Positions 1 through 12,286 of a DNA stretch of 64,000 bases are shown here, one piece after another. Position 1 is the first letter of the stretch, and every line of letters starts with the position of its first letter. Made by a program: the position numbers and the translations under genes. This stretch comes from a bacterium (GTDB lineage Bacteria > Patescibacteriota > UBA1384 > VFKW01): assembly GCA_030647355.1 (NCBI GenBank), contig JAUSIS010000006.1:169506-233505 (forward strand), in the 5' to 3' direction. The notes below the pieces were generated by a model. That model was not told where the DNA came from and did not search any database. It saw nothing but the letters and a program-made list of their open reading frames with translations.

Positions 1-457
1 GGATTTAGTAGTAATTGGTTTTGGGTTAATAATTGGTGGGTTAGCTGGCAAATATGTATTTGAAATTATTCTCGGGCACGCTTACTATAAAAAAAATAAA
101 TTGTCCTATAGCGCCACCGACTGGTTTCTTATATTAGTGAGTTTATTAATCAGCTTTATTCTTTTTATTATTATCCCTTTAATGGGTAAAGAGTTAGCGG
201 GAACACAGTATCCAAGTATCGTATATCTACCTTATTTTCCTATTGTTACAGGAATGGTTTATGGCTTTCTAGCTAAAAGTGTTTCGAGAAAAGAAGCGGA
301 TAATTATAAGGCGAGAAATTACATAATTTGGCTTACGCCCGTTTTTGTTAATTTTAATATTTGCTGGAAGAAACGCGAAAGCGGGTGGTTGATATATCTT
401 TCGAGTTGGTTAATAGTACTTGTAGGTTTTTTTCTTTTTTATATCAGTACAATATAG
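1..457 (+). CDS. multi-pass membrane protein, 5'-partial (frame is open back to the window start; the tabulated TTG at 101 is probably internal)
   Basis: Frame 2 has no stop from nt 2 to 457. The translation is strongly hydrophobic with several predicted TM helices. A hairpin plus T-run follows at 521-549. Confidence 0.4.
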   Translation, partial: DLVVIGFGLIIGGLAGKYVFEIILGHAYYKKNKLSYSATDWFLILVSLLISFILFIIIPLMGKELAGTQYPSIVYLPYFPIVTGMVYGFLAKSVSRKEADNYKARNYIIWLTPVFVNFNICWKKRESGWLIYLSSWLIVLVGFFLFYISTI

Positions 458-520
458 ACAAAATATCTGTCCACTCAAGTAGGTGTTCGAAACAAAGTGC
501 ATTCAGCCTACACGGCAAAA

Positions 521-549
521 TAACAGGTTTAGAGACCTGTTATTTTGTT
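521..549 (+). terminator. rho-independent terminator for the membrane-protein gene
   Basis: aacaggt-ttagag-acctgtt hairpin followed by attttgtt. Confidence 0.45.
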
Positions 550-589
550 AGTTGGGACCGGTTATTCCTCTAAAAAACGAATCAATAAA

Positions 590-619
590 TAGAAAAAAGT
601 CAGAGAAAACTCTGACTTA
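590..619 (-). terminator. rho-independent terminator for the radical SAM operon (minus strand)
   Basis: aagtcagag-aaaa-ctctgactt hairpin. On the minus strand it is followed by a T-run (the plus-strand A-run at 593-598). Confidence 0.45.
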
Positions 620-641
620 ATAGAATTCGAATGGCCATTTT

Positions 642-1553
642 CTACATGTAGTAGTTGAACATGTACGCATACTGTAGAAAATGTCCTTTGTGGTTGACGA
701 CAGGATGATTCCAGCATTTCCCTAGGCCATCTCTCAGAATATTACCGACGTTGATGCAGTCGTCTTGAGAGTAACCTTGAGAAATGACATCACCCCGTGA
801 ATCGATAAGGAAACAAGAGTGATGGTTGCCCAATTCGGAATAATCCTGAATAGTTATGAATGGCTCATCGCCCGACATCCTTTTGAGCTCTTGAAGCTGC
901 TTCAGATAAGTCTTCCTTTCCTCATCCGAAAGAAGAAGCTCCGTGTTCCCGTAAGCTTTACCTTGGGGCGCAATCAGGATATAGAACAGCCTGTCTACTC
1001 CCAAAGCTTTTGCTAGCTGGTAGATATAGTCTATCTTATCCAGATTGTCCTTTCTAACCAGGTAATTGATCCGCAATGGAACACCTGCGTCTCGGTATAG
1101 CTTCATTGACTCCACAGCCCTCCTATAGGCACCCTCGCCACGGGACCTGTCGTGAACTTCTTCGTCCCCATCCAAGGAAATCAACAGCAACGTTTTGGTT
1201 TCAAGGATTGTTTGGGCGATCTTTTGATTCCATATAGAGCCATTAGAAGTGACAAGGGTTTCGATGCCTCTGTCGGAAGCGTAGTTTAATATGTCACAGA
1301 TATCTGGACGAAGAAACGGCTCCCCCCCGGTGAAATCGATTCTCACCAGATTAGCCTCAGCCAAAACATCGACGATCGACTTGATGTCGCCCAAGGATAA
1401 TTCAGTAGAATCTTGCTCTCCGCTAAGACAGAAATCGCAATGGTAGTTACACCGTCGCGTAACCTGCCAGCAGAGTGATAACGGATTCGATAGCGTGACT
1501 TTCAGATTAGCCAATCGCTGCTCATGTCCTTCTTTGTACTCGACGATTCTCAT
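642..1553 (-). CDS. radical SAM enzyme with a C-terminal Cys-rich SPASM/twitch-like extension
   Basis: N-terminal CNYHCDFC (CxxxCxxC), a GGEP-like motif (FTGGEPFL), and C-terminal HHSCF...DDCINVG...KCWNH cysteines. A 9-bp gap separates it from the upstream methyltransferase gene. Confidence 0.7.
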   Translation of the reverse strand: MRIVEYKEGHEQRLANLKVTLSNPLSLCWQVTRRCNYHCDFCLSGEQDSTELSLGDIKSIVDVLAEANLVRIDFTGGEPFLRPDICDILNYASDRGIETLVTSNGSIWNQKIAQTILETKTLLLISLDGDEEVHDRSRGEGAYRRAVESMKLYRDAGVPLRINYLVRKDNLDKIDYIYQLAKALGVDRLFYILIAPQGKAYGNTELLLSDEERKTYLKQLQELKRMSGDEPFITIQDYSELGNHHSCFLIDSRGDVISQGYSQDDCINVGNILRDGLGKCWNHPVVNHKGHFLQYAYMFNYYM

Positions 1554-1562
1554 CTCTTATCC

Positions 1563-2270
1563 CTACCCTTTCTGATGCTGCAAAACCGAAGCTGTCATTT
1601 CCAAGACTGACACATTGTGCTGGATGTCTAGCGAAGGCAACTTCACGTTCCACTTGCCTGGAAAAGCGTTGTAGAATACCCCTTTCCTCGGCAATCTGAT
1701 AACAGTACCGACCACTGTCCTCGAAAAGAAGCCTAGGTCTGCATATGTACTCCTCATCCCCTCTGTGAATTCATTGATACCAAGCAGTTCACAAAACTCA
1801 TCGTTGCCGGCGTTTTCGATTGCAAGTATCATCCCGTCTGCTCGTAGGATGTCACCGAGCTTTCGAAAAACAATGTCGAACGAATCTCTCATAGACGTCA
1901 GACTCCACCCAGCGAAGATAAGGTCAACACTGCTGGGTAGTATGATCAAGTCTCTGGCATCTGTGAGCATGAATTCCACATTGTTGGCACCGAGATTCTT
2001 GTCGCGATTGATTTGCATCAAGCTTGTGCTTCTTTCTACGACGTAGAGCTTTGAGCACTCTCTCGATAAGAAAGATGTGAATTTCCCACTTCCAGCGCCG
2101 ACTTCAAGAATCGTTTTGCCCTTGAAATCGTACTGGCTGGATAAATACCCATCAATTATACCGAAAGCGTCCTGGCACCTACTGAATTCCTCGTAGGCAA
2201 CGCCCTGATTATAGTCAAATCGCCACAGGTCCTTGTTCATCTTAGTACCACCTTGTGATTGGTTTATCAA
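1563..2270 (-). CDS. class I SAM-dependent methyltransferase
   Basis: LEVGAGSGKFT glycine-rich motif I. AAGGTGG RBS 7 nt upstream of the ATG at 2270; an alternative start at 2240 is possible. Confidence 0.65.
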   Translation of the reverse strand: MINQSQGGTKMNKDLWRFDYNQGVAYEEFSRCQDAFGIIDGYLSSQYDFKGKTILEVGAGSGKFTSFLSRECSKLYVVERSTSLMQINRDKNLGANNVEFMLTDARDLIILPSSVDLIFAGWSLTSMRDSFDIVFRKLGDILRADGMILAIENAGNDEFCELLGINEFTEGMRSTYADLGFFSRTVVGTVIRLPRKGVFYNAFPGKWNVKLPSLDIQHNVSVLEMTASVLQHQKG

Positions 2271-2540
2271 TGTACCTCTATGTAAAAAGGGGTCAACCTT
2301 TTTAGATTAGCTGAATATTATCATGCATTAGACCAAAAAACAAGCCTTTGCCCGTATATTAAAAGAAATACCAGATAGTATTATTTGCTAGCGGGCCAAA
2401 GGAAGACTACTTGATTTGTTTCTAAATTTATGGTATTATCATGGCAACTAAACGGAGGGTCGCCCTGCGATCTTTTTGTTTGTAGGTTCCTTTACAACAG
2501 ATAGAATGTATCTCACACTAGAAAAGAGGAGGTGGCAACG

Positions 2541-3257
2541 GTGCAGTATGACGATAATGTCCTTGCAATAAGAGCCGCTGTAGCGAGATTTGAAGTTGAA
2601 CAAGGCGTTGATGTCAATGTCTTGTTTACGCAATTACTCCTACAGCATATCACCGACGGGTGCTCGTTGGTTGATATCGGCACTGGAAATGGTTTTGTTT
2701 TATCGCAAGTCTTGCAGCAAAGTGATAAACAGTTTCAACTATTCGGAGTAGATAACTCTCAGAGTATGGCATCTATTGCTCGGAAGAATCTTGTAGGAAA
2801 TGCTACTATCGTCGAAGCTGACGCTAGTGAGCTACCGTTTGATAACTGTAGCTTTGATATCGTATCTGCCAGAAATGTAACACAGATCGATGTTGTCGAG
2901 ATCTACCGTATATTGAAAGAAGGGGGGGTATTTGTCTTTCGTGAATATGGCTGCGGTAAGGGTATGCTGGAGATTGCCGATCTCTTTCGTGGCAGGATCA
3001 TTCGGCAGAGAGATCCTGATTATTATGTAGAAAGATTGCTAGACGCTGGTTTCCATATTGTGAAATTTGACCAATATGAGATCAAGCGTAAATACCGATC
3101 TGCACAAGAACTGGTTTCTATCGTCAAGAGCTACCCATTCGTTGTGGGTTTTTCCAGCCAGGACGAGAAGCTCATCTTAGAGAAGTTCGCCCAAAACGCT
3201 ACGATCACATCTGACCCGTTCATTCTGGTCACTACCAAACCGAAAGGATGTGCGTGA
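2541..3257 (+). CDS. class I SAM-dependent methyltransferase (Methyltransf_11/25-like)
   Basis: VDIGTGNGF motif I. AGGAGG RBS at 2526-2531 favours the GTG at 2541 over the tabulated 2532 start. The stop overlaps the next gene. Confidence 0.6.
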   Translation: MQYDDNVLAIRAAVARFEVEQGVDVNVLFTQLLLQHITDGCSLVDIGTGNGFVLSQVLQQSDKQFQLFGVDNSQSMASIARKNLVGNATIVEADASELPFDNCSFDIVSARNVTQIDVVEIYRILKEGGVFVFREYGCGKGMLEIADLFRGRIIRQRDPDYYVERLLDAGFHIVKFDQYEIKRKYRSAQELVSIVKSYPFVVGFSSQDEKLILEKFAQNATITSDPFILVTTKPKGCA

Positions 3258-3735
3258 AATGAGGAAAGTTGAATTGCTGTTCGATCTCATCAGGTCACCC
3301 TACGATATGGCACACATCGTCCAGATTGCCAAGTCGATCGACTGCATCGTCTATACTTCCGGCAGAAACTCGCTTTCTTTTGATATCCCCAAGGTGATAA
3401 CCAAGGTAAGATCTTGGAACATCAAGGGTGATTTCAAGGCGATTCATTATGAAACGTTTGAAGAAGCGATCCATGATCTGAGGGCAGAAGGTAAATACCT
3501 GGTGGGAACATCAGGTGAAGTCGACAAGCTTTTCTACGACATAGTTCTGCCGGATGGTAAGGATATAGTCGTAGTATTCGGCAACGAAACCTCCGGTCTG
3601 ACTGAAGCGAAGCAACAGATGTTGGACGATATGGTTAAGTTGCCAATGGACAAGTCCAAGGTTGATTTCCTGACCCTACCGGTGGCTGTCTCAGCCATCG
3701 CTTATGAGCTGTATCGACAGTACCACTGTCCGTAG
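3250..3735 (+). CDS. SPOUT-family RNA 2'-O-methyltransferase, TrmL-like
   Basis: C-terminal VVVFGNETSGL ... KLPM ... LTLPVAVSAIAYELYRQ matches the TrmL/SpoU motifs (FGxExxGL, IPM, SLNxSxAxxIxxYE). Protein is ~160 aa. Overlaps the upstream gene by 8 nt. Confidence 0.55.
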   Translation: MREMRKVELLFDLIRSPYDMAHIVQIAKSIDCIVYTSGRNSLSFDIPKVITKVRSWNIKGDFKAIHYETFEEAIHDLRAEGKYLVGTSGEVDKLFYDIVLPDGKDIVVVFGNETSGLTEAKQQMLDDMVKLPMDKSKVDFLTLPVAVSAIAYELYRQYHCP

Positions 3736-3757
3736 AGGAAGAAAGGTGGCGAGCATT

Positions 3758-4831
3758 ATGCTCAAGGATAAGATAGTTTATGTCGTCACCACGGGCGCAA
3801 CTAAGGCGAAAGGTGTTGGCATACTGCTCAGCATGCTAAAGTCAGAGGGTGCACAGTGCATCGTAATGCCAACCGACGCCAGCTATTCGATGCTTGATCT
3901 CGATTCAATCCGGGGCGAATGGGTCAAGTTCAATGGTAATGAATTCGGCGCCCGTCAAGACGAAATACCAGAAGAAGACCTAGTTGTTGTTGCGCCGTGC
4001 ACCTTCAATACGCTTTCCAAGATTGCGACGGGAATAGCTGATAACTATCCATTATCAGTGATCCATGCGGCGATCGGTAGCGGCAAGCCAGTGATTTTGG
4101 CCCTGGCTATGAATTACTGGTATTTCCAGCATCCTATAACTCCTGTAAACATCAACCGCGTAAACGCTTTTGGCAGGGTAAGGGTAATATGGCCTGAGTC
4201 GATCTATTCCGACGATGGTGTCCTCGAGAAAGTGACGATGGCGCCGTGGGAAAAGATTGTTGACACGATCTGCCATACCTACTGCAAGACACGATACAGC
4301 GAGACAAGAAAAGAACAAGAAACATCTGAGATTATCGATGATCACTTTCCAGAGTTCCATAAAACTGGCTCGAAGATGCAGCAAGACCATTTCACGAATG
4401 GTTCCGCTGGATTCATTGCCAAGAGAATTAAGGAAGGTGTACTTGTCACGTCTTCAGGGTCTTGTGTCGGAAATCTGTCAAGATCGGATCTCACGATTAT
4501 TCAGAACTGGTCCAATCAGGTTATAACCTGGTCAGGTGAGGCAAAGCCGTCGTCCGAGACGCCTTTGATATTGGAGATATTCGACAAATTCCCTGATGTC
4601 AAAGTAATCATACACGGACACTGTAGAAGCATCACTTACAGTCCTCTTATGAATAAGTATCACAGCAGTGAGTATCTCAAATACGGCGAATGGAAGGAGT
4701 TATACAAGATCCAGCCCGTTCTTCAGAAGTACAACGGGGGCATCATGAAATTGCATGGCGAGCTGATCCTTGCCAGGGATTTTGATGAAGCCATGGAGAG
4801 GTATCTGGATATGTATCGCCTAACCTGTTAA
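3758..4831 (+). CDS. two-domain fusion: HFCD/CoaC-like flavoprotein (N-terminal) plus class II aldolase/adducin-like domain (C-terminal)
   Basis: N-terminal APCTFNTLSKIATGIADN and ALAMNYWYF correspond to the HFCD PASANTxxKxAxGxxD and PAMNxxMW motifs. C-terminal PSSETPLILEIF...VIIHGHC corresponds to the class II aldolase PSSE...HTH pattern. GGTGG RBS sits before the ATG at 3758. Confidence 0.6.
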   Translation: MLKDKIVYVVTTGATKAKGVGILLSMLKSEGAQCIVMPTDASYSMLDLDSIRGEWVKFNGNEFGARQDEIPEEDLVVVAPCTFNTLSKIATGIADNYPLSVIHAAIGSGKPVILALAMNYWYFQHPITPVNINRVNAFGRVRVIWPESIYSDDGVLEKVTMAPWEKIVDTICHTYCKTRYSETRKEQETSEIIDDHFPEFHKTGSKMQQDHFTNGSAGFIAKRIKEGVLVTSSGSCVGNLSRSDLTIIQNWSNQVITWSGEAKPSSETPLILEIFDKFPDVKVIIHGHCRSITYSPLMNKYHSSEYLKYGEWKELYKIQPVLQKYNGGIMKLHGELILARDFDEAMERYLDMYRLTC

Positions 4832-4838
4832 TCGCAGG

Positions 4839-4874
4839 ACCCTATCAAGATTTATTTCAAGATAGGGTTTTTTA
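4839..4874 (+). terminator. rho-independent terminator
   Basis: accctatc / gatagggt 8-bp stem followed by TTTTTT. Confidence 0.5.
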
Positions 4875-4969
4875 ACCCAAAAAATTTATCATTTTACAGT
4901 ACAACTGGCATAAATTTATTATTTTGGTTATAATAACACTATTAGCCACAAATTTATAAAAGGAAGAAA

Positions 4970-5407
4970 ATGATCAAGAAAAAAATTCTAGCCATAGTTT
5001 ATAGGATAAAAAATCATAATGAACAGTTTCTAGCTTTATTGGAAAATAGCAGCGAAATCGATCAATCGGTCGGATACTACGTAGTTACCGGTGGAGTAGA
5101 AGGAAATGAAGGGTTACTGGATGCAGTGAAAAGAGAAATTATGGAAGAGACCGGAATAGAGAATATTGTTAATATTTTAGATTTGAATAAAATTTATGAA
5201 TACAAGCATCCAGCAGAGGGCGATTATCTCTGCCAGGAGTCTTGTTTTGCCGTGGAGGTTGATGACGAGGTGAAACATTTGAGCGTAGAGCATACAGGAT
5301 ATAAATGGTTACCTAGAAAAGAATTTTCCGATACGATATTTTGGTATACAAATAAAGCAGATTTAGATGAGCTATTAAATAAATTCATTAAGCACATGTC
5401 AAGGTAA
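4970..5407 (+). CDS. NUDIX hydrolase
   Basis: Nudix box GGVEGNEGLLDAVKREIMEETGIE (Gx5Ex7REUxEExGU). AAGGAAG RBS. Confidence 0.65.
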   Translation: MIKKKILAIVYRIKNHNEQFLALLENSSEIDQSVGYYVVTGGVEGNEGLLDAVKREIMEETGIENIVNILDLNKIYEYKHPAEGDYLCQESCFAVEVDDEVKHLSVEHTGYKWLPRKEFSDTIFWYTNKADLDELLNKFIKHMSR

Positions 5408-5601
5408 TAATTTTATTATCTCATACTTAGGGAGATCGATCTAATAACGATATAGTTATATTGATTGTACATATCAATTCCCTCGATATCTCTATCGAAG
5501 GCACTCCTTATTCTCTCCCGGCCCTCACCTCAAATACCTAGGGAATACCTTGGATAGATTTGGGCATTAATTTAGCTGATTATTGATAATAAAATAATGT
5601 A

Positions 5602-5631
5602 ATAGGTTCGAACAAACTCCCCTATGCGCTA
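5602..5631 (+). other. tRNA-Glu 3'-end-like fragment (T-arm/acceptor/CCA); possible att-site remnant
   Basis: GGTTCGAACAAACTCCCCTATGCGCTACCA matches the 3' terminal 26 nt of the intact tRNA-Glu at 10974-11048, apart from a 4-nt insertion. It is in inverted orientation relative to that gene. Confidence 0.45.
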
Positions 5632-5667
5632 CCACATGGTTTTTGATTTGAACCCGCAACCAACCCG

Positions 5668-5728
5668 GTAGACTGAATGAATCTTATTTCGAACACCTTG
5701 TGGATTGGCTGAATCAGCTAATGCTTGC
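5668..5728 (+). repeat. 61-bp direct repeat, copy 1 (flanks the SWIM/Fic island)
   Basis: ggtagactgaatgaatcttatttcgaacaccttgtggattggctgaatcagctaatgcttg. About 87% identical to the copy at 7679-7739 in the same orientation. Confidence 0.6.
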
Positions 5729-5805
5729 GTATGATCAGACGTTGTGTTTCAATCTCAAGAATGTATCTGATTGCTTTTAAAGTAAAAAGGCTCTAAAATG
5801 CAAAT

Positions 5806-6639
5806 ATGTTTTCATATACTAGAATTATTTTAGATAATACTGAATTATCGATCTATCAACGAGGCCTGGAATATGTCAACAAAAAGAAAGTGAAGTTAAC
5901 CTCTATCATAAATAATGGCTGCCAAGCAACTGCGAGTGGTTCACGAAATTATGAGATTACTCTAGGTTTCTCCAGGGTTGGCTCACCAAAATATTCCTGC
6001 TCCTGCCCATATTTTAGTGAACACAAAAAAGTGGTTTGTAAACATATTATTGGCACCTCGCTTGCTTGGGATAGATCGCGGAGTGTCCCTGATCCAGATG
6101 AAGAAACTTTGGAAGTACTTTGCATTCCGGAACCGATATTTTCGCACAAGGATATTAATGAAGCGTATAATAATCCGCTAACAGCTAACCTTGATGTTAT
6201 TCGAATCGCCGCTGATGAAAGCGGCTGGTCTAGGCCTCATGCACATTTACCAATAAAGCCACAAGTTTGTAATCATACAACCCTTGAGTTGACCGATATT
6301 AACAAAGGTATTTCAGAACTTCGTGCCTGGGCTAGAAAATATAACTTTGACCCCTATTTTTGCGCTGGCGAAATAATGGCCGGATTCTGTGAGCTCATAA
6401 GGTTCACTAAGTTTAAATTTGATACTTTAAATTTAGATGATAAAATTAAGGCAACAGTATTACTTGCTAATTTTCATCATGAATTAATCATGGAAAAGAT
6501 TGATGACAGCGAAGGCCTGCACGAATTTTCAGAAACTCATCTTTATGATCTAGTTAGCGAGTTAACTAACAATCAGAAGTTGAATCAGACGCAAATAAAA
6601 GCGCTTGAATTAATTAAACATAAAATTGATGATTATTAG
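5806..6639 (+). CDS. SWIM-type zinc-finger domain protein (hypothetical)
   Basis: CSCPYF...CKHI fits the SWIM CxCxnCxH signature. The rest has no other recognisable domain. Confidence 0.5.
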   Translation: MFSYTRIILDNTELSIYQRGLEYVNKKKVKLTSIINNGCQATASGSRNYEITLGFSRVGSPKYSCSCPYFSEHKKVVCKHIIGTSLAWDRSRSVPDPDEETLEVLCIPEPIFSHKDINEAYNNPLTANLDVIRIAADESGWSRPHAHLPIKPQVCNHTTLELTDINKGISELRAWARKYNFDPYFCAGEIMAGFCELIRFTKFKFDTLNLDDKIKATVLLANFHHELIMEKIDDSEGLHEFSETHLYDLVSELTNNQKLNQTQIKALELIKHKIDDY

Positions 6640-6660: not shown

Positions 6661-7548
6661 TCAGGTAATTTTATATTCTGCCCTGATTTTCCAGACGCCT
6701 CGCTCGCGAAAAGCAGGAATCGATTGCCTTAGAGCGGCATTAAAAACTGTCGGAGCTCTTAAATTATTTTTTCGTACATAATCAGATAGATTGATTATTT
6801 CCGATCCTTCGAAATATGTGATTCTTTTATTTAACGATTCGGTTAGAGCCAGAGCCATAACTTTTTCCATCAATTTTGAATTTTTATTAAACTGATAAGC
6901 CTTAAATGCTTCATAATAGTCAGCCTTTTCTTTATCTCTGATAATTATACGGGGGAAGCCAAGTTGTAAGAGTTGAAAATTGGTCAGAACTCGACCAATT
7001 CGGCCGTTGCCATCGCAAAAAGGATGAATTCTCTCAAATTCAAGATGAAATTTAGCGATTTTATCAATAAAATAAGCAATGTGATCACTGGAATAATCAA
7101 TCAAAACATTATCAATTAACTGCTCGACTTTTTCGGGTGCCGACGCAACATGGGTGCCTACTCTAACATACTCGCCGATCCTACGAAAACGTCCGGCTAT
7201 ATTATCATCAATTCCGCCCATCAGCATTTGATGAATAAGCAATATTAGTTCTTTTGAGATTTCATCAGTTTGTGCTTTATCCCTTGTATAGTCAACAACC
7301 CTAGCCAAATTCTTAGCTTCATATACTTCGCGAAGGGTAACATCTCGTGAAAGCTCTTGCTCGAGTAGGATTTTTTCTGTCTCTTTAAGAGTCAATGTTG
7401 AGTTTTCAATCGCGTTGGAGTTATAGACACTTTCCGGCACTTCGGCTTGATCAATAATCGTTAAGAGAGCGTCTTTTCCTTGTTTCAAGACATTATATCT
7501 TGTCTTCAATTCACTTAATTTTTCTTGATAAGGTTTTGATAATGACAT
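6661..7548 (-). CDS. Fic/Doc family protein (class II Fic, putative AMPylase) with N-terminal inhibitory motif
   Basis: Canonical HPFCDGNGRIGR Fic motif. N-terminal SNAIEN fits the (S/T)xxxE(G/N) autoinhibitory helix. GGGGG RBS before the ATG at 7548 (tabulated start is 7590). Confidence 0.75.
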   Translation of the reverse strand: MSLSKPYQEKLSELKTRYNVLKQGKDALLTIIDQAEVPESVYNSNAIENSTLTLKETEKILLEQELSRDVTLREVYEAKNLARVVDYTRDKAQTDEISKELILLIHQMLMGGIDDNIAGRFRRIGEYVRVGTHVASAPEKVEQLIDNVLIDYSSDHIAYFIDKIAKFHLEFERIHPFCDGNGRIGRVLTNFQLLQLGFPRIIIRDKEKADYYEAFKAYQFNKNSKLMEKVMALALTESLNKRITYFEGSEIINLSDYVRKNNLRAPTVFNAALRQSIPAFRERGVWKIRAEYKIT

Positions 7549-7834: not shown

Positions 7835-10534
7835 TTATTTAGTCAGCACTACACTTATCTGGCTCTGGCTGATATTGCCGGCCGCATCATAGGCCTTGGC
7901 GACAATAGTGTAGGTACCGGCCGAGATGCCCTTGCCTCTGGTATTCCAAGTGTAGGAGTAAGGGGAAGTTGTATCGGTGGCTTTAAGAGAGCCGTTGATG
8001 TAAAACTCGACCTTAGCAACACCGACATTATCGGTGGCATTAGCTGTAATATTGACCTTGGTACCCATTTTAATATTAGCGCCACTTAAGGGCAAAGTAA
8101 TGGAGACTGCGGGAGGAGTGGTATCTGGTGTTCCCCCACCACCGCCACTACCGATGGTATAGAAAGCCCAGCCTCTACCCAGACAATTACCACTGCCGGC
8201 AGCAAAAGGTACCGGGCATGTTGTGAGGGTACTGGTAATAAGCGATGCTCTGACCGCAAATGGATAAACTTTTGCCGAAGCAGATAAGGGTGATGTTAAA
8301 TGTAGTATAGTTGAGCTACTTGTTCCTGAAGCCAGCGATGTCAATGTTTCTTGATCGAAGCCAAAAGACCATCCAATACCCATACCTGAACCGTTCTCCC
8401 ACATCAGACTATAACTTTGGTTGGAACAGTAAGAGTTGCTCGCATTCGTGACCGTAACAGTGTAGGAAACTTCAGCTCCCGCATTAACCGCTGTCGACAT
8501 TGTCGGCGTGATATTAACAACCGGGGTTTGATTTATACAATCAGTCGGCGCTCCGCTCCATACCACATAGGCAGCAGTGGATGTTCCAGCAAGAGCGGTG
8601 TTTGCTTGATGAGAAGCTTTGGCGGTGAAAAAGTAAAAACCTTGTGGAGTACTGGCCGGAGAGGTGACGGAGAGCATGGCGGTGCCTGTTGCCCCCGGCG
8701 GTAAAGTTAAATTGGAAACATTAAATTGAGCCGATAAATTAGGATCTGCTGTGTAGCCGAGATCGTAGGTGGCAGGTTCACAGCCAAGCGTGTCGCTATT
8801 CTTAATACCTATGACATAGTACAGAGTTTTTCCTCCAGTAGTAGTCCCTTGATTACCGCCGGCAATTTGCACCTGGGGAGCAAAACGACCACATACTGCG
8901 GTTGGGTCAATCGTAATGTTAACCGTTGCCTCTTGGTCTGTTACCGAGGTAGTAGTGATTTTTACTCCTGATGATGAATCATTGAATATTTGATCGGGTT
9001 TAAGCGCCCATTGAGTCGGCGTTGCCACTGAAGCGCCGGCACGCAAAAGGTCGGTCATGCTGCCATAGGTGATATCCGGAGCAATCCTTATAAATATTCC
9101 TCCCGGATTAGCAAAAGAGTCAAAGCCATAAGTTTTGCGATACTCCAAATAAAAATATTTTTTCACTACATTCGTAGCCGGGTCTATCTCCTTCGGGATT
9201 CTAATCATCTGGATACCACTTGACGCGTATTCTTGCGGGGCAATTTTATAGGTTCCGCTTTGAGTCACTGTTTGATAATTGGTGGAGGTAATCCAGTCTC
9301 TGAAAGTTTTGTAATAATTGTTGTAGTGATAATAACCGCCGCCCATAATATCATACGGATCGCCATACTCACTCCATTTACAATTATCCCCTATGGGAAC
9401 GGGGTTACTGGCAGTATCGGCGCAAATGAAAGAATTGGCGTGATAAAAACCAAGGTTATGTCCCATCTCGTGAGCAATTGTAGGTGAGTTATAGTAGATG
9501 GGAGTGCTGCCAGATCCGGTATAAGTTGAGTACCAACTGCTTCCACGTACCCCACTCCCCAAGGAGCCCCGCGCACTAAAGAGACATTGGGTGGAGATGT
9601 TGCCAAAAACATACTGAACATTGGTGTAGGCGGCCGGATCAAAACCATCCCTCGCGGCCGCCATCTTGTCTCCGGCACTCCCCCAGATTCCCCACCAATT
9701 ATCCGAAAATGAACAATCGTCATTTCTGTATGATATAGTATACCAGCCGTAAATATCCAAATTCGGATCTTTGATTCCGCTCATAATAGTCTTGCCGAAA
9801 GAAGCTTCCTTCCAAAGATTGTTCACCGAATTTGGATTCAGATAATTAATCTGACGAATATAATCATTGGTAACGGTTTGTGTTTGATCATTTTGGAAAT
9901 TAATCAAGATTACCGCTATTTTGCGCATATCTGTAGGGGTAACGGTCGCTGCAACTTCTTGGGAGTCAACTGCGACAATGTCCTCGCTTCTGGCGACAAT
10001 AATATCCTGAATTTTTATTCCACTTAGTTTCACATTTCTGTTAGCCAACGATGTCGGAGCTTCACCGTCAATAAATATTTCCGGCGCTTCCGGTAGCTTT
10101 CCTAGATAGTAATGCGCTTTACCGACTTTTTCTTGGAAATCATCTTCTATAATAACTTGCAAATTACCTTCGCTCCGAAACCGCTCCTCAACGCTAGGCT
10201 TAATTTCAGCCGGCATCTGGTTGTAGAAATTCAACGGTAGCGCTGAGCTCATAAACTCGCCGGGATTTTCTTTTGCTATCATTGTAAATTTATTTTTGCG
10301 TGATTGGGCAATATCTTTAAGTTCTGCCATATCCTCGATTTTCTTACTTTTCTTATATTTAGAGGCAGCACTTAAAAGCCGGTCATTAAGGTTTTTTACC
10401 ACCACTCGTTCTTCCTGAGTTTTCAGGACATCTGCCTTAAAGAAAAGGTTATTCTTCATTAAAACAATAACTAATCCTGCAGCAGATAGAACTAAGACGA
10501 AAATTAGAATTGATAACAAAGTTCTTTTGGGCAT
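7835..10534 (-). CDS. secreted/membrane-anchored metzincin-type zinc metalloprotease with C-terminal Ig-like domain
   Basis: N-terminal TM/signal anchor. HEMGHNLGFYH matches the metzincin HExxHxxGxxH zinc site. A long Thr/Ser/Gly-rich beta-rich region and a C-terminal Ig-like module (VEFYINGSL...YTWN...GTYTI) follow. AAGGAGGG RBS before the ATG at 10534. Confidence 0.6.
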   Translation of the reverse strand: MPKRTLLSILIFVLVLSAAGLVIVLMKNNLFFKADVLKTQEERVVVKNLNDRLLSAASKYKKSKKIEDMAELKDIAQSRKNKFTMIAKENPGEFMSSALPLNFYNQMPAEIKPSVEERFRSEGNLQVIIEDDFQEKVGKAHYYLGKLPEAPEIFIDGEAPTSLANRNVKLSGIKIQDIIVARSEDIVAVDSQEVAATVTPTDMRKIAVILINFQNDQTQTVTNDYIRQINYLNPNSVNNLWKEASFGKTIMSGIKDPNLDIYGWYTISYRNDDCSFSDNWWGIWGSAGDKMAAARDGFDPAAYTNVQYVFGNISTQCLFSARGSLGSGVRGSSWYSTYTGSGSTPIYYNSPTIAHEMGHNLGFYHANSFICADTASNPVPIGDNCKWSEYGDPYDIMGGGYYHYNNYYKTFRDWITSTNYQTVTQSGTYKIAPQEYASSGIQMIRIPKEIDPATNVVKKYFYLEYRKTYGFDSFANPGGIFIRIAPDITYGSMTDLLRAGASVATPTQWALKPDQIFNDSSSGVKITTTSVTDQEATVNITIDPTAVCGRFAPQVQIAGGNQGTTTGGKTLYYVIGIKNSDTLGCEPATYDLGYTADPNLSAQFNVSNLTLPPGATGTAMLSVTSPASTPQGFYFFTAKASHQANTALAGTSTAAYVVWSGAPTDCINQTPVVNITPTMSTAVNAGAEVSYTVTVTNASNSYCSNQSYSLMWENGSGMGIGWSFGFDQETLTSLASGTSSSTILHLTSPLSASAKVYPFAVRASLITSTLTTCPVPFAAGSGNCLGRGWAFYTIGSGGGGGTPDTTPPAVSITLPLSGANIKMGTKVNITANATDNVGVAKVEFYINGSLKATDTTSPYSYTWNTRGKGISAGTYTIVAKAYDAAGNISQSQISVVLTK

Positions 10535-10584
10535 TTTCCCTCCTTTATTCATATTATCTCAACTATAATAATTATAAATAGCCA

Positions 10585-10986
10585 ATGTGGCGGTGTCAAG
10601 TGTACGTATGGAATCGAATTGTATGTGGGAAACTCACCCAAATGGTCCACTTTGTGGCCGTTTCCCGACCCCTTCCCGGATCCGATTCCAGACTCATATA
10701 TACCAAAATAGAGGAGAAAATAAGAGCACTTCAAATCGCTAAGAATGACGATTTACTTTTGAAATATAATCTTGAGGCGATCACCAAATTTATAAAAAAC
10801 AAGCTTGGTAATCTCACTCAAACTTACATAGATTCAACTCTGGAACAGAAGAGAATCTTGTTGTGTTCGATATACCCCTCAGGATTGCATTGGGGCGAAA
10901 ATGGCTATTCGAACACCCAAATTAGCAAGTTCTACAGGAGTATATTGGGGATACAGACTGATAGCATCCCTTTTGGTAGCGCATAG
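10585..10986 (+). pseudogene. truncated tyrosine-recombinase (integrase)-like N-terminal fragment abutting tRNA-Glu
   Basis: STLEQKRILLCSIYPSGLHWGE resembles the start of the tyrosine recombinase catalytic domain (LLLLLYTGLRxxE), with H in place of the first catalytic R. It is preceded by a SAM-like core-binding stretch. The ORF runs into the tRNA and lacks the rest of the catalytic domain. Confidence 0.35.
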
Positions 10987-11048
10987 GGGAGTCGAACCCC
11001 TCTTTTCAGATTGAAAATCTGACGTCCTAACCGATAGACGAATGCGCC
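10974..11048 (-). tRNA. tRNA-Glu (anticodon UUC), CCA encoded
   Basis: Manual cloverleaf on the minus strand: acceptor GGCGCAT/ATGCGCT (G1-U72), D-arm GTCT/GGAC, anticodon stem TCAGA/TCTGA with loop TTTTCAA (UUC), T-arm AGGGG-TTCGACT-CCCCT, discriminator A + CCA. Confidence 0.8.
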
Positions 11049-11098: not shown

Positions 11099-11233
11099 CG
11101 TAAATATGACAAATAATCAAGCTAGCTCAGGGTAATTCGCATTACCCTTCCTTTACAAAATGACTAATCGGTACTATAATTATGCAACATTCAAACGCCG
11201 CAAATTTACATCTACGAAAGGGGAAAATTATCC

Positions 11234-12286
11234 ATGCAACGACCGGATAGCAAGACTATTAGTATAGAGATGCCTTGCGATATGCACACCCACTTGCGCG
11301 AGGGAGAACTCCAGAACCGAATAGTCCCGCACTTTGCTTGGCTTGACGCCGTCGTCGCCATGCTCAACTACAAGGACCCCCTCGACCTGGATCAGATTCT
11401 CACCGAGCGTGCTCGGATCGAGGAATTGATTCACCAGGCAGGTGGCCATGCCGAGCTGCTCATCGCACCATTAATGAATGAGGGGACGAGCGCTGACGAC
11501 ATTGATGCTTTCGCAGCCAACGGCATCAAGATCGTCAAAGTGATGCTCAAGGGCGTTACAACCAATTCGCACCTCGGCGTCAATCGGATCCGAGACATGT
11601 ACCCGATCTTCGCCCGCATGGAGGAACTGGGAATGATCGCCAGTTTTCATGGCGAGCTTCCCAATGTACCACACCGGTGGGCAGAGCAAGCCTTCTTACC
11701 GACCTATGAGATCTTGGCACTCAAATTCCCGCGTCTCAAGATTGTCGCCGAGCATATCTCGACACGGGAGGGTATTGAGTTGATCAAATCTCTTCCCGAA
11801 AATGTGGTAGCCACCTTGACGGCCTCGCACATGATGATTACTGGACGACAAGTCTTCAAGTCTGAAAGCGCCGAAGAAGTGCTATTCCCTAACAGGTTCT
11901 TCAGACCGGTCGCCAAGGAACACGAAGACATGATTGCCATTCAGCAAGCCGCTATGTCCGGAAATCCCAAGTTCATCTTCGGATCCGACAGTGCTCCGCA
12001 CACGCCAGAAAAGAAGCAGCTCCCCAACCCTGCTGCCGGTGCATTCTTTCCACCAGAACTAGCAATTCCGGCAATTGCGGAGGCCTTCGTGAACCTGAAT
12101 AAACTCGATCGTCTCGATGCCTTTCTTTCCGGCAACGCCCAGCGCTTCTACGGTCTCACGCCGAGCAAGCGCCAGCTTACACTTAAGTATGGCGAGTGGA
12201 CGACGCCTGAATACATCGAGGGCATAGTCCCGCTTCTGTGTGTCTATCCGATGTACTGGAGAATTGACGATAACGGCACCGACTAA
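11234..12286 (+). CDS. pyrC: dihydroorotase-like amidohydrolase (class II DHOase-like)
   Basis: N-terminal MPCDMHTHLREGE fits the DxHxHLR metal-binding start of class II dihydroorotases. Length 350 aa. GC about 53% against a ~40% background. Confidence 0.55.
   Translation: MQRPDSKTISIEMPCDMHTHLREGELQNRIVPHFAWLDAVVAMLNYKDPLDLDQILTERARIEELIHQAGGHAELLIAPLMNEGTSADDIDAFAANGIKIVKVMLKGVTTNSHLGVNRIRDMYPIFARMEELGMIASFHGELPNVPHRWAEQAFLPTYEILALKFPRLKIVAEHISTREGIELIKSLPENVVATLTASHMMITGRQVFKSESAEEVLFPNRFFRPVAKEHEDMIAIQQAAMSGNPKFIFGSDSAPHTPEKKQLPNPAAGAFFPPELAIPAIAEAFVNLNKLDRLDAFLSGNAQRFYGLTPSKRQLTLKYGEWTTPEYIEGIVPLLCVYPMYWRIDDNGTD

Follow-up and report, generated by a model that had tools for sequence, protein, structure and literature searches.

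A mobile accessory enzyme cassette of Bacteria and DPANN Archaea with a SPOUT protein and an HFCD flavoprotein::class II aldolase fusion in its core

We analysed a stretch of 64,000 nucleotides (the window, to which all coordinates refer unless another locus is named) from contig JAUSIS010000006.1 of a Patescibacterial genome, and in particular the six genes located between positions 642 and 5407. These genes make up one copy of an accessory enzyme cassette that is self-contained and horizontally mobile and whose invariant core consists of a class I methyltransferase (MTB), a divergent SPOUT protein and a fusion of an HFCD flavoprotein with a class II aldolase/adducin domain. The cassette is a real conserved module and not a chance juxtaposition of genes, since the orthologues are clustered, rather than scattered, in 35 loci of very different lineages. 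With a probability of about 0.45, we favor the reading that it is an autonomous cassette tailoring a nucleotide-type or ribose-phosphate-type small molecule. A preliminary description of the region had presented it as an unusual and uncharacterised biosynthetic or modification cluster, and this view holds, given that its orthologues remain together and that none of its proteins reaches the curated cut-off of any equivalog model shown.

Gene layout, conservation and mobility of the cassette

Gene starts were fixed by comparison with homologues and with the public gene call of the same contig. All six open reading frames (ORFs) of the preliminary description were found at or near the positions it gave, and Pfam and NCBIfam confirmed the domains it had assigned to them. 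The elements of the cassette are as follows.

642-1553, minus strand: radical SAM protein (rSAM), 303 aa; PF04055, 76 bits
1563-2240, minus strand: class I methyltransferase A (MTA), family 5; 225 aa in the public gene call, ORF extendable to 2270; Methyltransf_11/25
2241-2531, between the two arms: divergent control region, with promoter-like sites facing both directions
2454-2486, plus strand: terminator-like hairpin and T-run in the 5' leader of the plus-strand operon; terminator scan match at 2454-2476 plus a T-rich tail
2532-3257, plus strand: class I methyltransferase B (MTB), core gene, family 2; Methyltransf_25/11, UbiE-like
3259-3735 (ORF from 3250), plus strand: SPOUT protein, core gene, family 0; PF00588, 45 bits
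3758-4831 (ORF from 3704), plus strand: HFCD flavoprotein::class II aldolase/adducin fusion, core gene, family 1; PF02441, 61 bits, and PF00596, 53 bits
4840-4873, plus strand: terminator-like hairpin CCCTATC...GATAGGG followed by TTTTTT, just 3' of the fusion gene; read from the sequence
4970-5407, plus strand: NUDIX protein, family 3; PF00293, 42 bits; promoter-like sites of its own

The starts at 2240, 3259 and 3758 are supported by homologues or public calls, and the ATG at 2240 is the probable start of MTA, in line with the public call. Because of these homologue-supported starts, the plus-strand genes of the window are close-packed, with gaps of 1 and 22 nt, and do not overlap, whereas those of the archaeal copies overlap by 4-16 nt. 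The NUDIX gene is present 140 nt further on, as described, and it is set off from the fusion gene by the hairpin at 4840-4873, which the consensus terminator scan missed because its loop is longer than 8 nt, and by promoter-like sites at 4893-4934. The control region shared by the two divergent arms has promoter-like hexamers at 2411-2439 (plus strand, with TG) and at 2296-2269 (minus strand), and a promoter block of the TTGCA...TATGTTAT type is common to the window and to homologous loci. A hairpin with a U-run occurs in the leader at the matching position, with a different sequence, in four other loci (L013, L017, L021 and L022), and the one at 2454-2486 may be a transcription attenuator. 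A pathway controlled by a riboswitch was also considered and set aside, as Rfam (at the gathering threshold for the whole window and at E<=1 for positions 1-6000) matched no riboswitch or other RNA family in the cassette and only two tRNAs elsewhere.

The GC content of positions 642-4831 is 45.4%, compared to a window mean of 42.0% (standard deviation of 1.5% for 4.2-kb windows; top 2%), while the NUDIX gene and the SWIM and Fic genes that follow it have 35-37%, below the window average. The GC excess reported earlier (~46-48% against ~40%) is therefore real but modest, and by itself it is a weak argument for the acquisition that the preliminary description drew from it; the evidence for acquisition lies instead in heterogeneous flanks, in a copy on a mobile element and in repeats, as described below.

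The 35 loci with near-complete copies were gathered by contig look-ups and by a scan of one genome per species. Their hosts are Patescibacteria (Saccharibacteria/Nanosyncoccus, Moraniibacteriota, Paceibacterota, Berkelbacteria and WWE3), DPANN archaea (Pace-, Woese- and Nanoarchaeota), gut and rumen Clostridia, Omnitrophota and one metagenome-assembled genome (MAG) of the Pseudomonadales. According to the clustering of all ORFs in these loci, the SPOUT and fusion genes are present in 35/35, always as neighbours in that order, MTB in 33/35 and NUDIX in 19/35. The gene order MTB-(TrxR)-SPOUT-fusion, where TrxR is a thioredoxin reductase-like flavoenzyme, is common to the 35 loci, and every copy has a second, variable class I methyltransferase that comes from one of at least four unrelated families (families 5, 8, 10 and 14, with cross-scores of 20-33 bits between their hidden Markov models, HMMs).

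Three accessory variants can be distinguished. Variant A, from gut Clostridia, Omnitrophota, Berkelbacteria and WWE3, has only the second methyltransferase, usually together with NUDIX. Variant B, from DPANN archaea and some Clostridia, has the TrxR-like flavoenzyme, a ~190-aa SLOG-family protein and other methyltransferases, in a tightly overlapping operon of the order MTB-TrxR-SPOUT-fusion-190aa-NUDIX. Variant C comprises 13 loci, including the window, in which rSAM and MTA are transcribed divergently from the core; MTA adjoins rSAM in 12 of these 13 and belongs to a family distinct from the second methyltransferases of the other variants. The co-occurrence of the fusion with rSAM suggested for checking is consequently a partial one (13/35 cassettes), the remaining 22 lacking rSAM. 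In a distant Patescibacterial variant (L038, 5476-6829), a different rSAM was observed, in two pieces: a core of 233 aa and an ORF of 206 aa that has a SPASM-like CxxCx5Cx3C motif. It adjoins a PCMT-like methyltransferase of 404 aa, and the rSAM slot is, in view of this copy, filled by non-orthologous enzymes.

The flanks of the cassette are heterogeneous, with 183 Pfam families in 142 flanking proteins and none of the families in more than three of them, and the cassette itself is present in both Bacteria and DPANN Archaea. In a Clostridiaceae MAG (L001, 1994-12147), it is the sole evident cargo of an integrative mobilisable element that carries genes for an integrase, an excisionase-like helix-turn-helix (HTH) protein (HTH_17), DUF6076, a relaxase, MobC/NikA, TnpV and RepA_N. 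In L018, 170-bp direct repeats at 6798-6967 and 11177-11348, 88-97% identical, exactly flank the 4.2-kb cassette and hold a T-arm-like GAGATTCGAAC segment, while ARAGORN detected no tRNA in them; copies of this repeat are likewise found next to the cassettes of two related loci, L019 and, on both sides, L020, and a serine recombinase adjoins the cassette of L039. Searches of IMG/VR, of INPHARED phages and of PLSDB plasmids with the fusion protein returned no full-length copy, just CoaBC-like partial matches.

Every domain of the cassette comes from a known superfamily. In the literature searched, neither the gene combination nor its hallmark fusion family or cassette-specific SPOUT family is described, and a review on NAD/ADP-ribose conflict systems that treats SLOG and Nudix proteins mentions no SPOUT, aldolase or flavoprotein partners for them.

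Properties of the encoded proteins

The fusion protein belongs to a small family, with ~90 clusters in a library of 5.8 billion proteins and only 43 representatives with E<=1e-30 among 1.84 billion. Its AlphaFold2 (AF2) model has a predicted local distance difference test (pLDDT) score of 93, and Foldseek relates the N-terminal domain to AtHal3a, a phosphopantothenoylcysteine (PPC) decarboxylase (1mvn, E 7e-13; also 1e20), to EpiD and to 3qjg, and the C-terminal domain to FucA, YgbL/OtnC and DrdA. The HFCD fold and its motifs are conserved, namely PCTFNT..K...GIADNYP and the AMN core (PAMN). No conserved residue was found at the position of the HFCD catalytic His, which we take to be His90 in AtHal3a and His67 in EpiD: in the alignment of homologues, this column is variable (R/K/D...) and the segment reads IPEED. 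The clamp Cys is absent, with a shortened clamp loop in the archaeal and most divergent bacterial members, and a different His, H125, located after the PAMN motif, is nearly invariant.

The C-terminal domain is a class II aldolase superfamily member (PF00596, 52.7 bits against a cut-off of 22.2) in which E267, H286, H288 and H333 are invariant; these correspond to E73, H92, H94 and H155 of FucA. The invariant residues of the protein include PSSE, HGH and H333, and, following the known FucA structure, we assume that the PSSE and HGH...H residues bind phosphate and Zn, which makes the domain probably competent for catalysis on a phosphate ester, as judged from these residues. Class II aldolases that act on ketose phosphates (FucA, MtnB, AraD, OtnC/YgbL and the DrdA of the 5-deoxyribose shunt) share the fold and the residues of the metal and phosphate sites; the cassette domain differs from them in being joined covalently to a flavoprotein, in scoring below all the equivalog cut-offs shown (OtnC is best, with 43 bits against 250, and MtnB reaches 38 against 137), and in having no consistent isomerase, kinase or phosphorylase partner genes. 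For the N-terminal domain, the best matches in both sequence and structure are proteins of the CoaC type; the fusion, for its part, carries the aldolase domain where CoaB would be: PF04127 (CoaB) is unmatched, and the score with the CoaBC model TIGR00521 is 53.9 bits against a cut-off of 219.7. The aldolase-type half is also seen in other architectures, a group of ~305-350 aa (profile positions ~110-350) and another of ~800 aa in which the domain is C-terminal, and these uncharacterised relatives might help to date the fusion. Stand-alone HFCD relatives from Chloroflexota and Actinomycetota were inspected as well, and their neighbourhoods (ABC transporter, glyoxalase, pectate lyase) were uninformative on function.

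The SPOUT protein is the most conserved of the cassette, with 66-81% identity across phyla. Its family comprises 131 clusters, and there is no distant or characterised relative among the matches listed, given that these are 49-100% identical to the query; it is a dedicated family, whose gene adjoins the fusion gene in every locus examined. The protein exceeds the Pfam cut-off (PF00588, 45.5 bits against 29.7) and falls below all NCBIfam cut-offs (TrmL, 32 against 190). The knotted fold and the S-adenosylmethionine (SAM) motifs 2 and 3 are present, and the protein aligns with TrmL over its C-terminal half and with RlmB, AviRb and TrmH over nearly the full length. With these SpoU-type 2'-O-methyltransferases it shares the knotted, SAM-binding C-terminal half and a minimal TrmL-like size. 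It differs from them in constituting a separate family that lacks their signature Arg and Asn: in the HMMER alignments (1gz0, 1x7o and 7edc), the motif-1 Arg (L/I-R-S/T-A), catalytic in TrmH, is replaced by the invariant Gln22, and the motif-3 Asn of SLN by the invariant Thr139. The earlier label of TrmL-like is accordingly only approximate, and the alignments indicate that the active site is remodelled. The other core enzyme, MTB, has invariant columns that include a DxGTG SAM motif, R14, R126, R137, K143, R155 and R158, and its relatives in the Protein Data Bank (PDB) are generic class I methyltransferases only.

In rSAM, the superfamily motifs are invariant (CX3CX2C at C35/C39/C42 and the GGE at G76-G77-E78), as are C28, C247 and C266, while C280 is present in most members. 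The preliminary description was correct about the CxxxCxxC motif and not about a SPASM domain in the C-terminus, where C247 and C266 form a CX12GX5C hairpin; the seven-Cys motif with two auxiliary clusters of a full SPASM domain was not found and PF13186 is unmatched. The cysteine pattern corresponds to a predicted partial-SPASM or twitch-type site, and an auxiliary Fe-S site is indicated by the invariant extra C28, C247 and C266. The family is tight, with ~60 full-length clusters at 65-88% identity, all of 301-305 aa, and beyond it the identity falls to ~30% (SPASM enzymes of the AhbC/AhbD/NirJ type). In the AF2 model (pLDDT 85), the barrel begins at about residue 25, and no N-terminal peptide-recognition domain precedes it. 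All scores lie below the NCBIfam cut-offs shown, from the mycofactocin maturase, which is the top match (121 bits against 265), to viperin (NF038283, 81.9 against 180), and NCBIfam gave no match of the NrdG type.

rSAM was compared with viperin and other relatives both by structure and by profile. By structure, the Foldseek superposition of the model is equally good on viperin, over the full length and with template modelling (TM) scores of 0.75-0.78, and on SkfB, with 0.73; for the CTP-bound viperin 6q2p, the values are TM 0.75/0.78 and a root-mean-square deviation of 2.9 A over 294 columns. By profile search of the PDB, SkfB is first, with 97 bits, followed by viperin (77), MoaA (66) and BlsE (62). 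The structural neighbours include viperin, MoaA, BlsE and DesII. Viperins, known as RSAD2 in eukaryotes and as pVip in prokaryotes, are ddhNTP synthases, which make 3'-deoxy-3',4'-didehydro-NTPs. rSAM shares with them the size and the fold, a partial (beta-alpha)6 barrel with a C-terminal extension, as well as an accessory and patchy distribution, and the PADLOC pVip models, for which no cut-off is given, match it end to end with ~90 bits. Its Arg/Asn residues align with the KINS and RWK segments of viperin, which places basic residues opposite the triphosphate-binding segments. It differs from viperin in failing the NCBIfam family cut-off, in having 'CWQ' in place of 'NYH', and in being an optional part of a multi-enzyme cassette instead of a stand-alone or kinase-linked gene; in addition, to our knowledge, viperins have no auxiliary Fe-S site. 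The identification of rSAM as a viperin was downgraded on account of the higher profile rank of SkfB, the failed cut-off and the auxiliary-cluster cysteines, and homology cannot decide the class of substrate of this enzyme.

The NUDIX protein has the Nudix box GX5EX7REUXEEXGU, with G41, E44, R55, E56, E59 and E60 invariant in 10 homologues. The nearest NCBIfam model is that of the dihydroneopterin-triphosphate/dATP diphosphatase (44 bits against a cut-off of 103), the nearest PDB entries are NudB (2o1c) and Ap4A hydrolases, and in archaea the gene lies within the tight cassette operon. Regarding the proteins of variant B, the TrxR-like one is not a disulfide reductase, since it has no CxxC, and the ~190-aa protein (family 7), which is encoded within the overlapping operon, matches SLOG cluster 4 (PF18306) in 5/8 members, with a best E of 4.8e-7; its 'SPGT..E' segment resembles what we take to be the LOG signature, PGGxGTxxE. 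Some partners are sporadic: a Zeta-toxin/AAA_33 P-loop kinase directly after MTB in L039 (12610-13398) and L040 (12611-13456), an APH-type kinase in L016, and, upstream of the SPOUT gene of L040 and divergent from it, a gene (8596-9156) for a Ham1-like non-canonical NTPase; no NUDIX of family 3 was found in L040.

Surroundings of the window copy

The features that surround the cassette in the window are listed next.

481-511, minus strand: border repeat, left copy (inverted); 31-61-nt repeat
5616-5634, plus strand: 19-nt exact copy of the 3' end of tRNA-Glu(UUC), 209 nt past the NUDIX gene
5667-5727, plus strand: border repeat, middle copy, between the cassette and the SWIM+Fic module
5806-6639, plus strand: SWIM zinc-finger protein, 3' of the cassette; PADLOC PDC-S62, 42 bits
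6661-7590, minus strand: Fic-family protein; PDC-S04, 131 bits; SoFic, 96 bits
7678-7738, plus strand: border repeat, third copy; 88.5% identical to 5667-5727

The border repeat, which contains a GCTGAATCAGC near-palindrome, has only three copies in the 64-kb window, all of them at the edges of the cassette or of the SWIM+Fic pair, which is itself flanked by two of them. These repeats may be the recombination sites of a modular island. The 19-nt copy of the tRNA-Glu end is inverted relative to the tRNA-Glu(UUC) gene, located 5.3 kb off (10974-11048, minus strand), and in L021 a tRNA-Glu gene (11138-11212) lies 67 nt past the fusion gene. Both observations hint at an integration associated with tRNA-Glu, in an orientation unfit for a simple att pair. 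The ORF at 10585-10986, beside the tRNA-Glu gene, was considered as a recombinase remnant and dropped, as it has no Pfam match.

Mutually homologous Fic genes adjoin cassettes of the candidate phyla radiation (CPR, the window), of Clostridia (L005 and L025) and of a Woesearchaeote (L032), and AbiEii, RhuM, Fic, Zeta-like and OLD/AAA_15 genes are found near some copies. The Fic genes and the other neighbouring conflict genes hint at a role in conflict or defence; the evidence for it is suggestive only, because most flanking genes are ordinary. PADLOC-DB 2.0 matched no described defence system in the cassette, giving generic hits only, to pVip for rSAM, to the methyltransferase domain of mad2 and, weakly, to PDC-S07 for NUDIX, with no match of any kind for the SPOUT and fusion proteins.

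Other neighbours were noted in passing. In L006, genes for an HTH protein, DUF6922 and AbiEii stand beside the operon. Between the Fic module and tRNA-Glu, the window encodes a secreted-looking protein of 905 aa (7835-10552, minus strand), with an HExxH-type metallopeptidase-like segment (weak Reprolysin matches) and a C-terminal Big_7 Ig domain. On the contig to the left of the window start (L073, 137-6700), six consecutive ORFs of 152-626 aa, with no Pfam match, lie upstream of the cassette.

Possible functions of the cassette

In the favored reading, in which the cassette tailors a nucleotide-type or ribose-phosphate-type small molecule, NUDIX would trim or sanitise a (modified) nucleoside triphosphate, rSAM, like viperin, MoaA and BlsE among its structural neighbours, would abstract a sugar hydrogen, and the fusion would combine a flavin-dependent redox step with enediolate chemistry (a dehydration, epimerisation, decarboxylation or cleavage) on a phosphate ester, after which two or three SAM-dependent methylations would finish the product. 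Several lines of evidence point to such a substrate. The recurring accessories, that is, the NUDIX of NudB/Ap4A type (19 loci), the Ham1-like NTPase (one locus), the SLOG protein and the kinases, are of the kinds that handle free nucleotides; the aldolase domain keeps the phosphate and metal residues PSSE and HGH...H, which argues for a phosphate ester; hydrogen abstraction from the sugar of a nucleotide is known for several structural neighbours of rSAM (viperin, MoaA, BlsE and DesII), whose model also superposes on CTP-bound viperin; and the signature Arg and Asn of RNA 2'-O-methylases are gone from the SPOUT protein, which favors a small molecule. The preliminary description had offered a small-molecule or nucleoside pathway as its second option, and this option fits the 35 loci better than its first one. 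Furthermore, since the methyltransferase and redox modules are swapped while the core chemistry is constant, a family of diversifying products is suggested, which by analogy would be closer to conflict systems or specialised metabolism than to a housekeeping modification that stays fixed.

Nucleoside-antibiotic clusters offer a parallel in terms of gene content. The puromycin cluster contains the NUDIX protein Pur7, methyltransferases and an NTP dehydrogenase, and that of blasticidin S contains the rSAM BlsE and a CMP hydrolase. Like clusters of this kind, the cassette combines several SAM methyltransferases with an NTP pyrophosphatase and with a redox or radical enzyme directed at a sugar; variant B adds a protein of the LOG/SLOG type, and BlsE is among the solved relatives of rSAM. 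It differs from them in that no orthology was shown, in lacking an aminotransferase, a ligase and a resistance or export gene, and in its hosts, which are CPR, DPANN and gut Clostridia and not actinomycetes.

Some of our observations weigh against a nucleotide-type substrate. Every functional step is derived from superfamily membership and is to be read as a prediction. The closest solved relative of rSAM by profile, SkfB, is a peptide maturase, and membership in the viperin family fails. NUDIX was detected in 19/35 loci only and in the window forms a separate transcription unit of different GC content; the SLOG assignment comes from weak HMM matches; and the associations with Ham1, kinases and RtcB were each seen in one or two loci. 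In addition, all the solved or characterised close relatives of the SPOUT protein (TrmL, RlmB, AviRb and TrmH) methylate RNA, as tRNA or rRNA 2'-O-methylases, and an RNA target would agree as well with the very high conservation of this protein (up to 81% identity between phyla).

The last two points lead to the main rival, an RNA-modification or RNA-protection module in which the SPOUT protein and the class I methyltransferases would methylate one or more conserved rRNA or tRNA sites, with the fusion, rSAM and NUDIX adding or processing a hypermodification or processing an RNA end; as with the AviRa/AviRb pair, the outcome could be resistance to a ribosome-targeting antibiotic or ribotoxin. 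An RNA ligase gene, RtcB, adjoins the copy of L029, the P-loop kinases of L039 and L040 are polynucleotide kinase-like, and the Clostridial copy travels on a small mobilisable element, a type of element that often carries resistance cargo. We nevertheless consider this rival unlikely, because no member of the SPOUT family, which also lacks an RNA-binding extension, retains the motif-1 Arg or the motif-3 Asn, because the SLOG, NudB-like NUDIX and Ham1-like partners and the sugar-phosphate aldolase fold are typical of the chemistry of free nucleotides and small molecules, and because a fixed RNA site would not be expected to go with a second methyltransferase that changes from one unrelated family to another. 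The median isoelectric point (pI), acidic to neutral, goes in the same direction and is too weak to separate RNA from small-molecule substrates. If the RNA reading were true, the cassette would be a new mobile determinant of RNA hypermodification or resistance, present on a mobilisable element in gut Clostridia.

The first option of the preliminary description, the maturation of a ribosomally synthesised and post-translationally modified peptide (RiPP), would require a peptide or protein substrate encoded elsewhere, to be modified by rSAM and the HFCD domain and tailored by the methyltransferases. This proposal draws on the rank of SkfB as the best solved relative of rSAM by profile and of the mycofactocin maturase as its top NCBIfam match, on the twitch-like CX12GX5C hairpin, and on an HFCD fold that is closest to PPC and peptidyl-cysteine decarboxylases and keeps the PAMN motif, all of which recall the SkfB and EpiD sets. 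The comparison of the loci does not support it, and we hold it to be very improbable. When the 1769 intergenic ORFs of 12-90 aa from the 35 loci were clustered, they were shared solely among near-identical genomes, so that no conserved small ORF exists in the cassette or within 1.5 kb of it in divergent loci, in agreement with the earlier remark that no convincing precursor could be seen. Unlike the RiPP sets, the cassette has no RiPP recognition element (RRE) or PqqD-like Pfam domain in the proteins scanned and no protease, transporter or cyclase genes that recur across the loci; its rSAM has no full SPASM domain and is dispensable, and its HFCD domain has neither a conserved residue at the canonical catalytic His nor the clamp Cys. 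About as improbable is the tailoring of a cofactor, in which the HFCD domain would use flavin as a substrate, as UbiX does, or bind a pantetheine-type molecule and, together with the methyltransferases and NUDIX (acting, for example, as a pyrophosphatase of FAD or dephospho-CoA), make or remodel a flavin-like or CoA-like cofactor for organisms unable to make their own. The 'PCT' form of the HFCD signature motif, which we take to resemble that of UbiX/Pad1, the TrxR-like NAD(P)H flavoenzyme without a redox disulfide, an alternative module and plausible flavin reductase, and the largely auxotrophic CPR and DPANN hosts speak for it. On the other hand, the UbiX model gives 21 bits over 28 residues only, prenyl- or pantothenate-related genes are missing from the cassette, no cofactor role is known for the SPOUT and SLOG partners, and the cassette is rare and patchy, as the scarcity of fusion representatives given above illustrates, unlike an essential cofactor pathway. 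Lastly, the superfamily of each domain also contains housekeeping enzymes, and one might think of a CoaBC-type, NrdG-type, TrmL and MutT set clustered by chance, a housekeeping identity of rSAM or of the flavoprotein being what the preliminary description itself had named, next to scattered orthologues, as evidence that would speak against its proposal. The probability of such a set is negligible: every protein is far under the cut-off of each equivalog model shown (CoaBC, 54 bits against 220), an aldolase domain takes the place of the CoaB domain, and the gene order is kept in 35 loci of unrelated lineages with unrelated flanks.

Returning to the nucleotide-type or ribose-phosphate-type product, a more specific and rather doubtful form of this reading can be put forward, namely that the cassette represents a new class of mobile, self-contained producers of a multiply methylated, sugar-modified nucleotide analogue, which would be a signal or an effector with antiviral or antimicrobial action. 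Such producers would need no true viperin and would have been exchanged among episymbiotic CPR bacteria, DPANN archaea and gut Clostridia. In this case, a free nucleotide or ribose phosphate, and not RNA or phosphopantothenoylcysteine, would be the substrate of the SPOUT protein and of the fusion, and for both folds such chemistry would be new.

Should its product be a modified nucleotide, the cassette would constitute a new enzymatic route to nucleotide-analogue effectors, beside that of viperin, it would provide the first small-molecule substrate for an enzyme of the SPOUT fold, and it would assign a function to an uncharacterised family of flavoprotein::aldolase fusions. Organisms with reduced genomes are not expected to devote three to four SAM-dependent enzymes to something dispensable, so that the product is probably of importance for their symbiotic or competitive lifestyle, and the cassette is a clear case of a complete multi-enzyme module that moves between reduced-genome Bacteria and Archaea.

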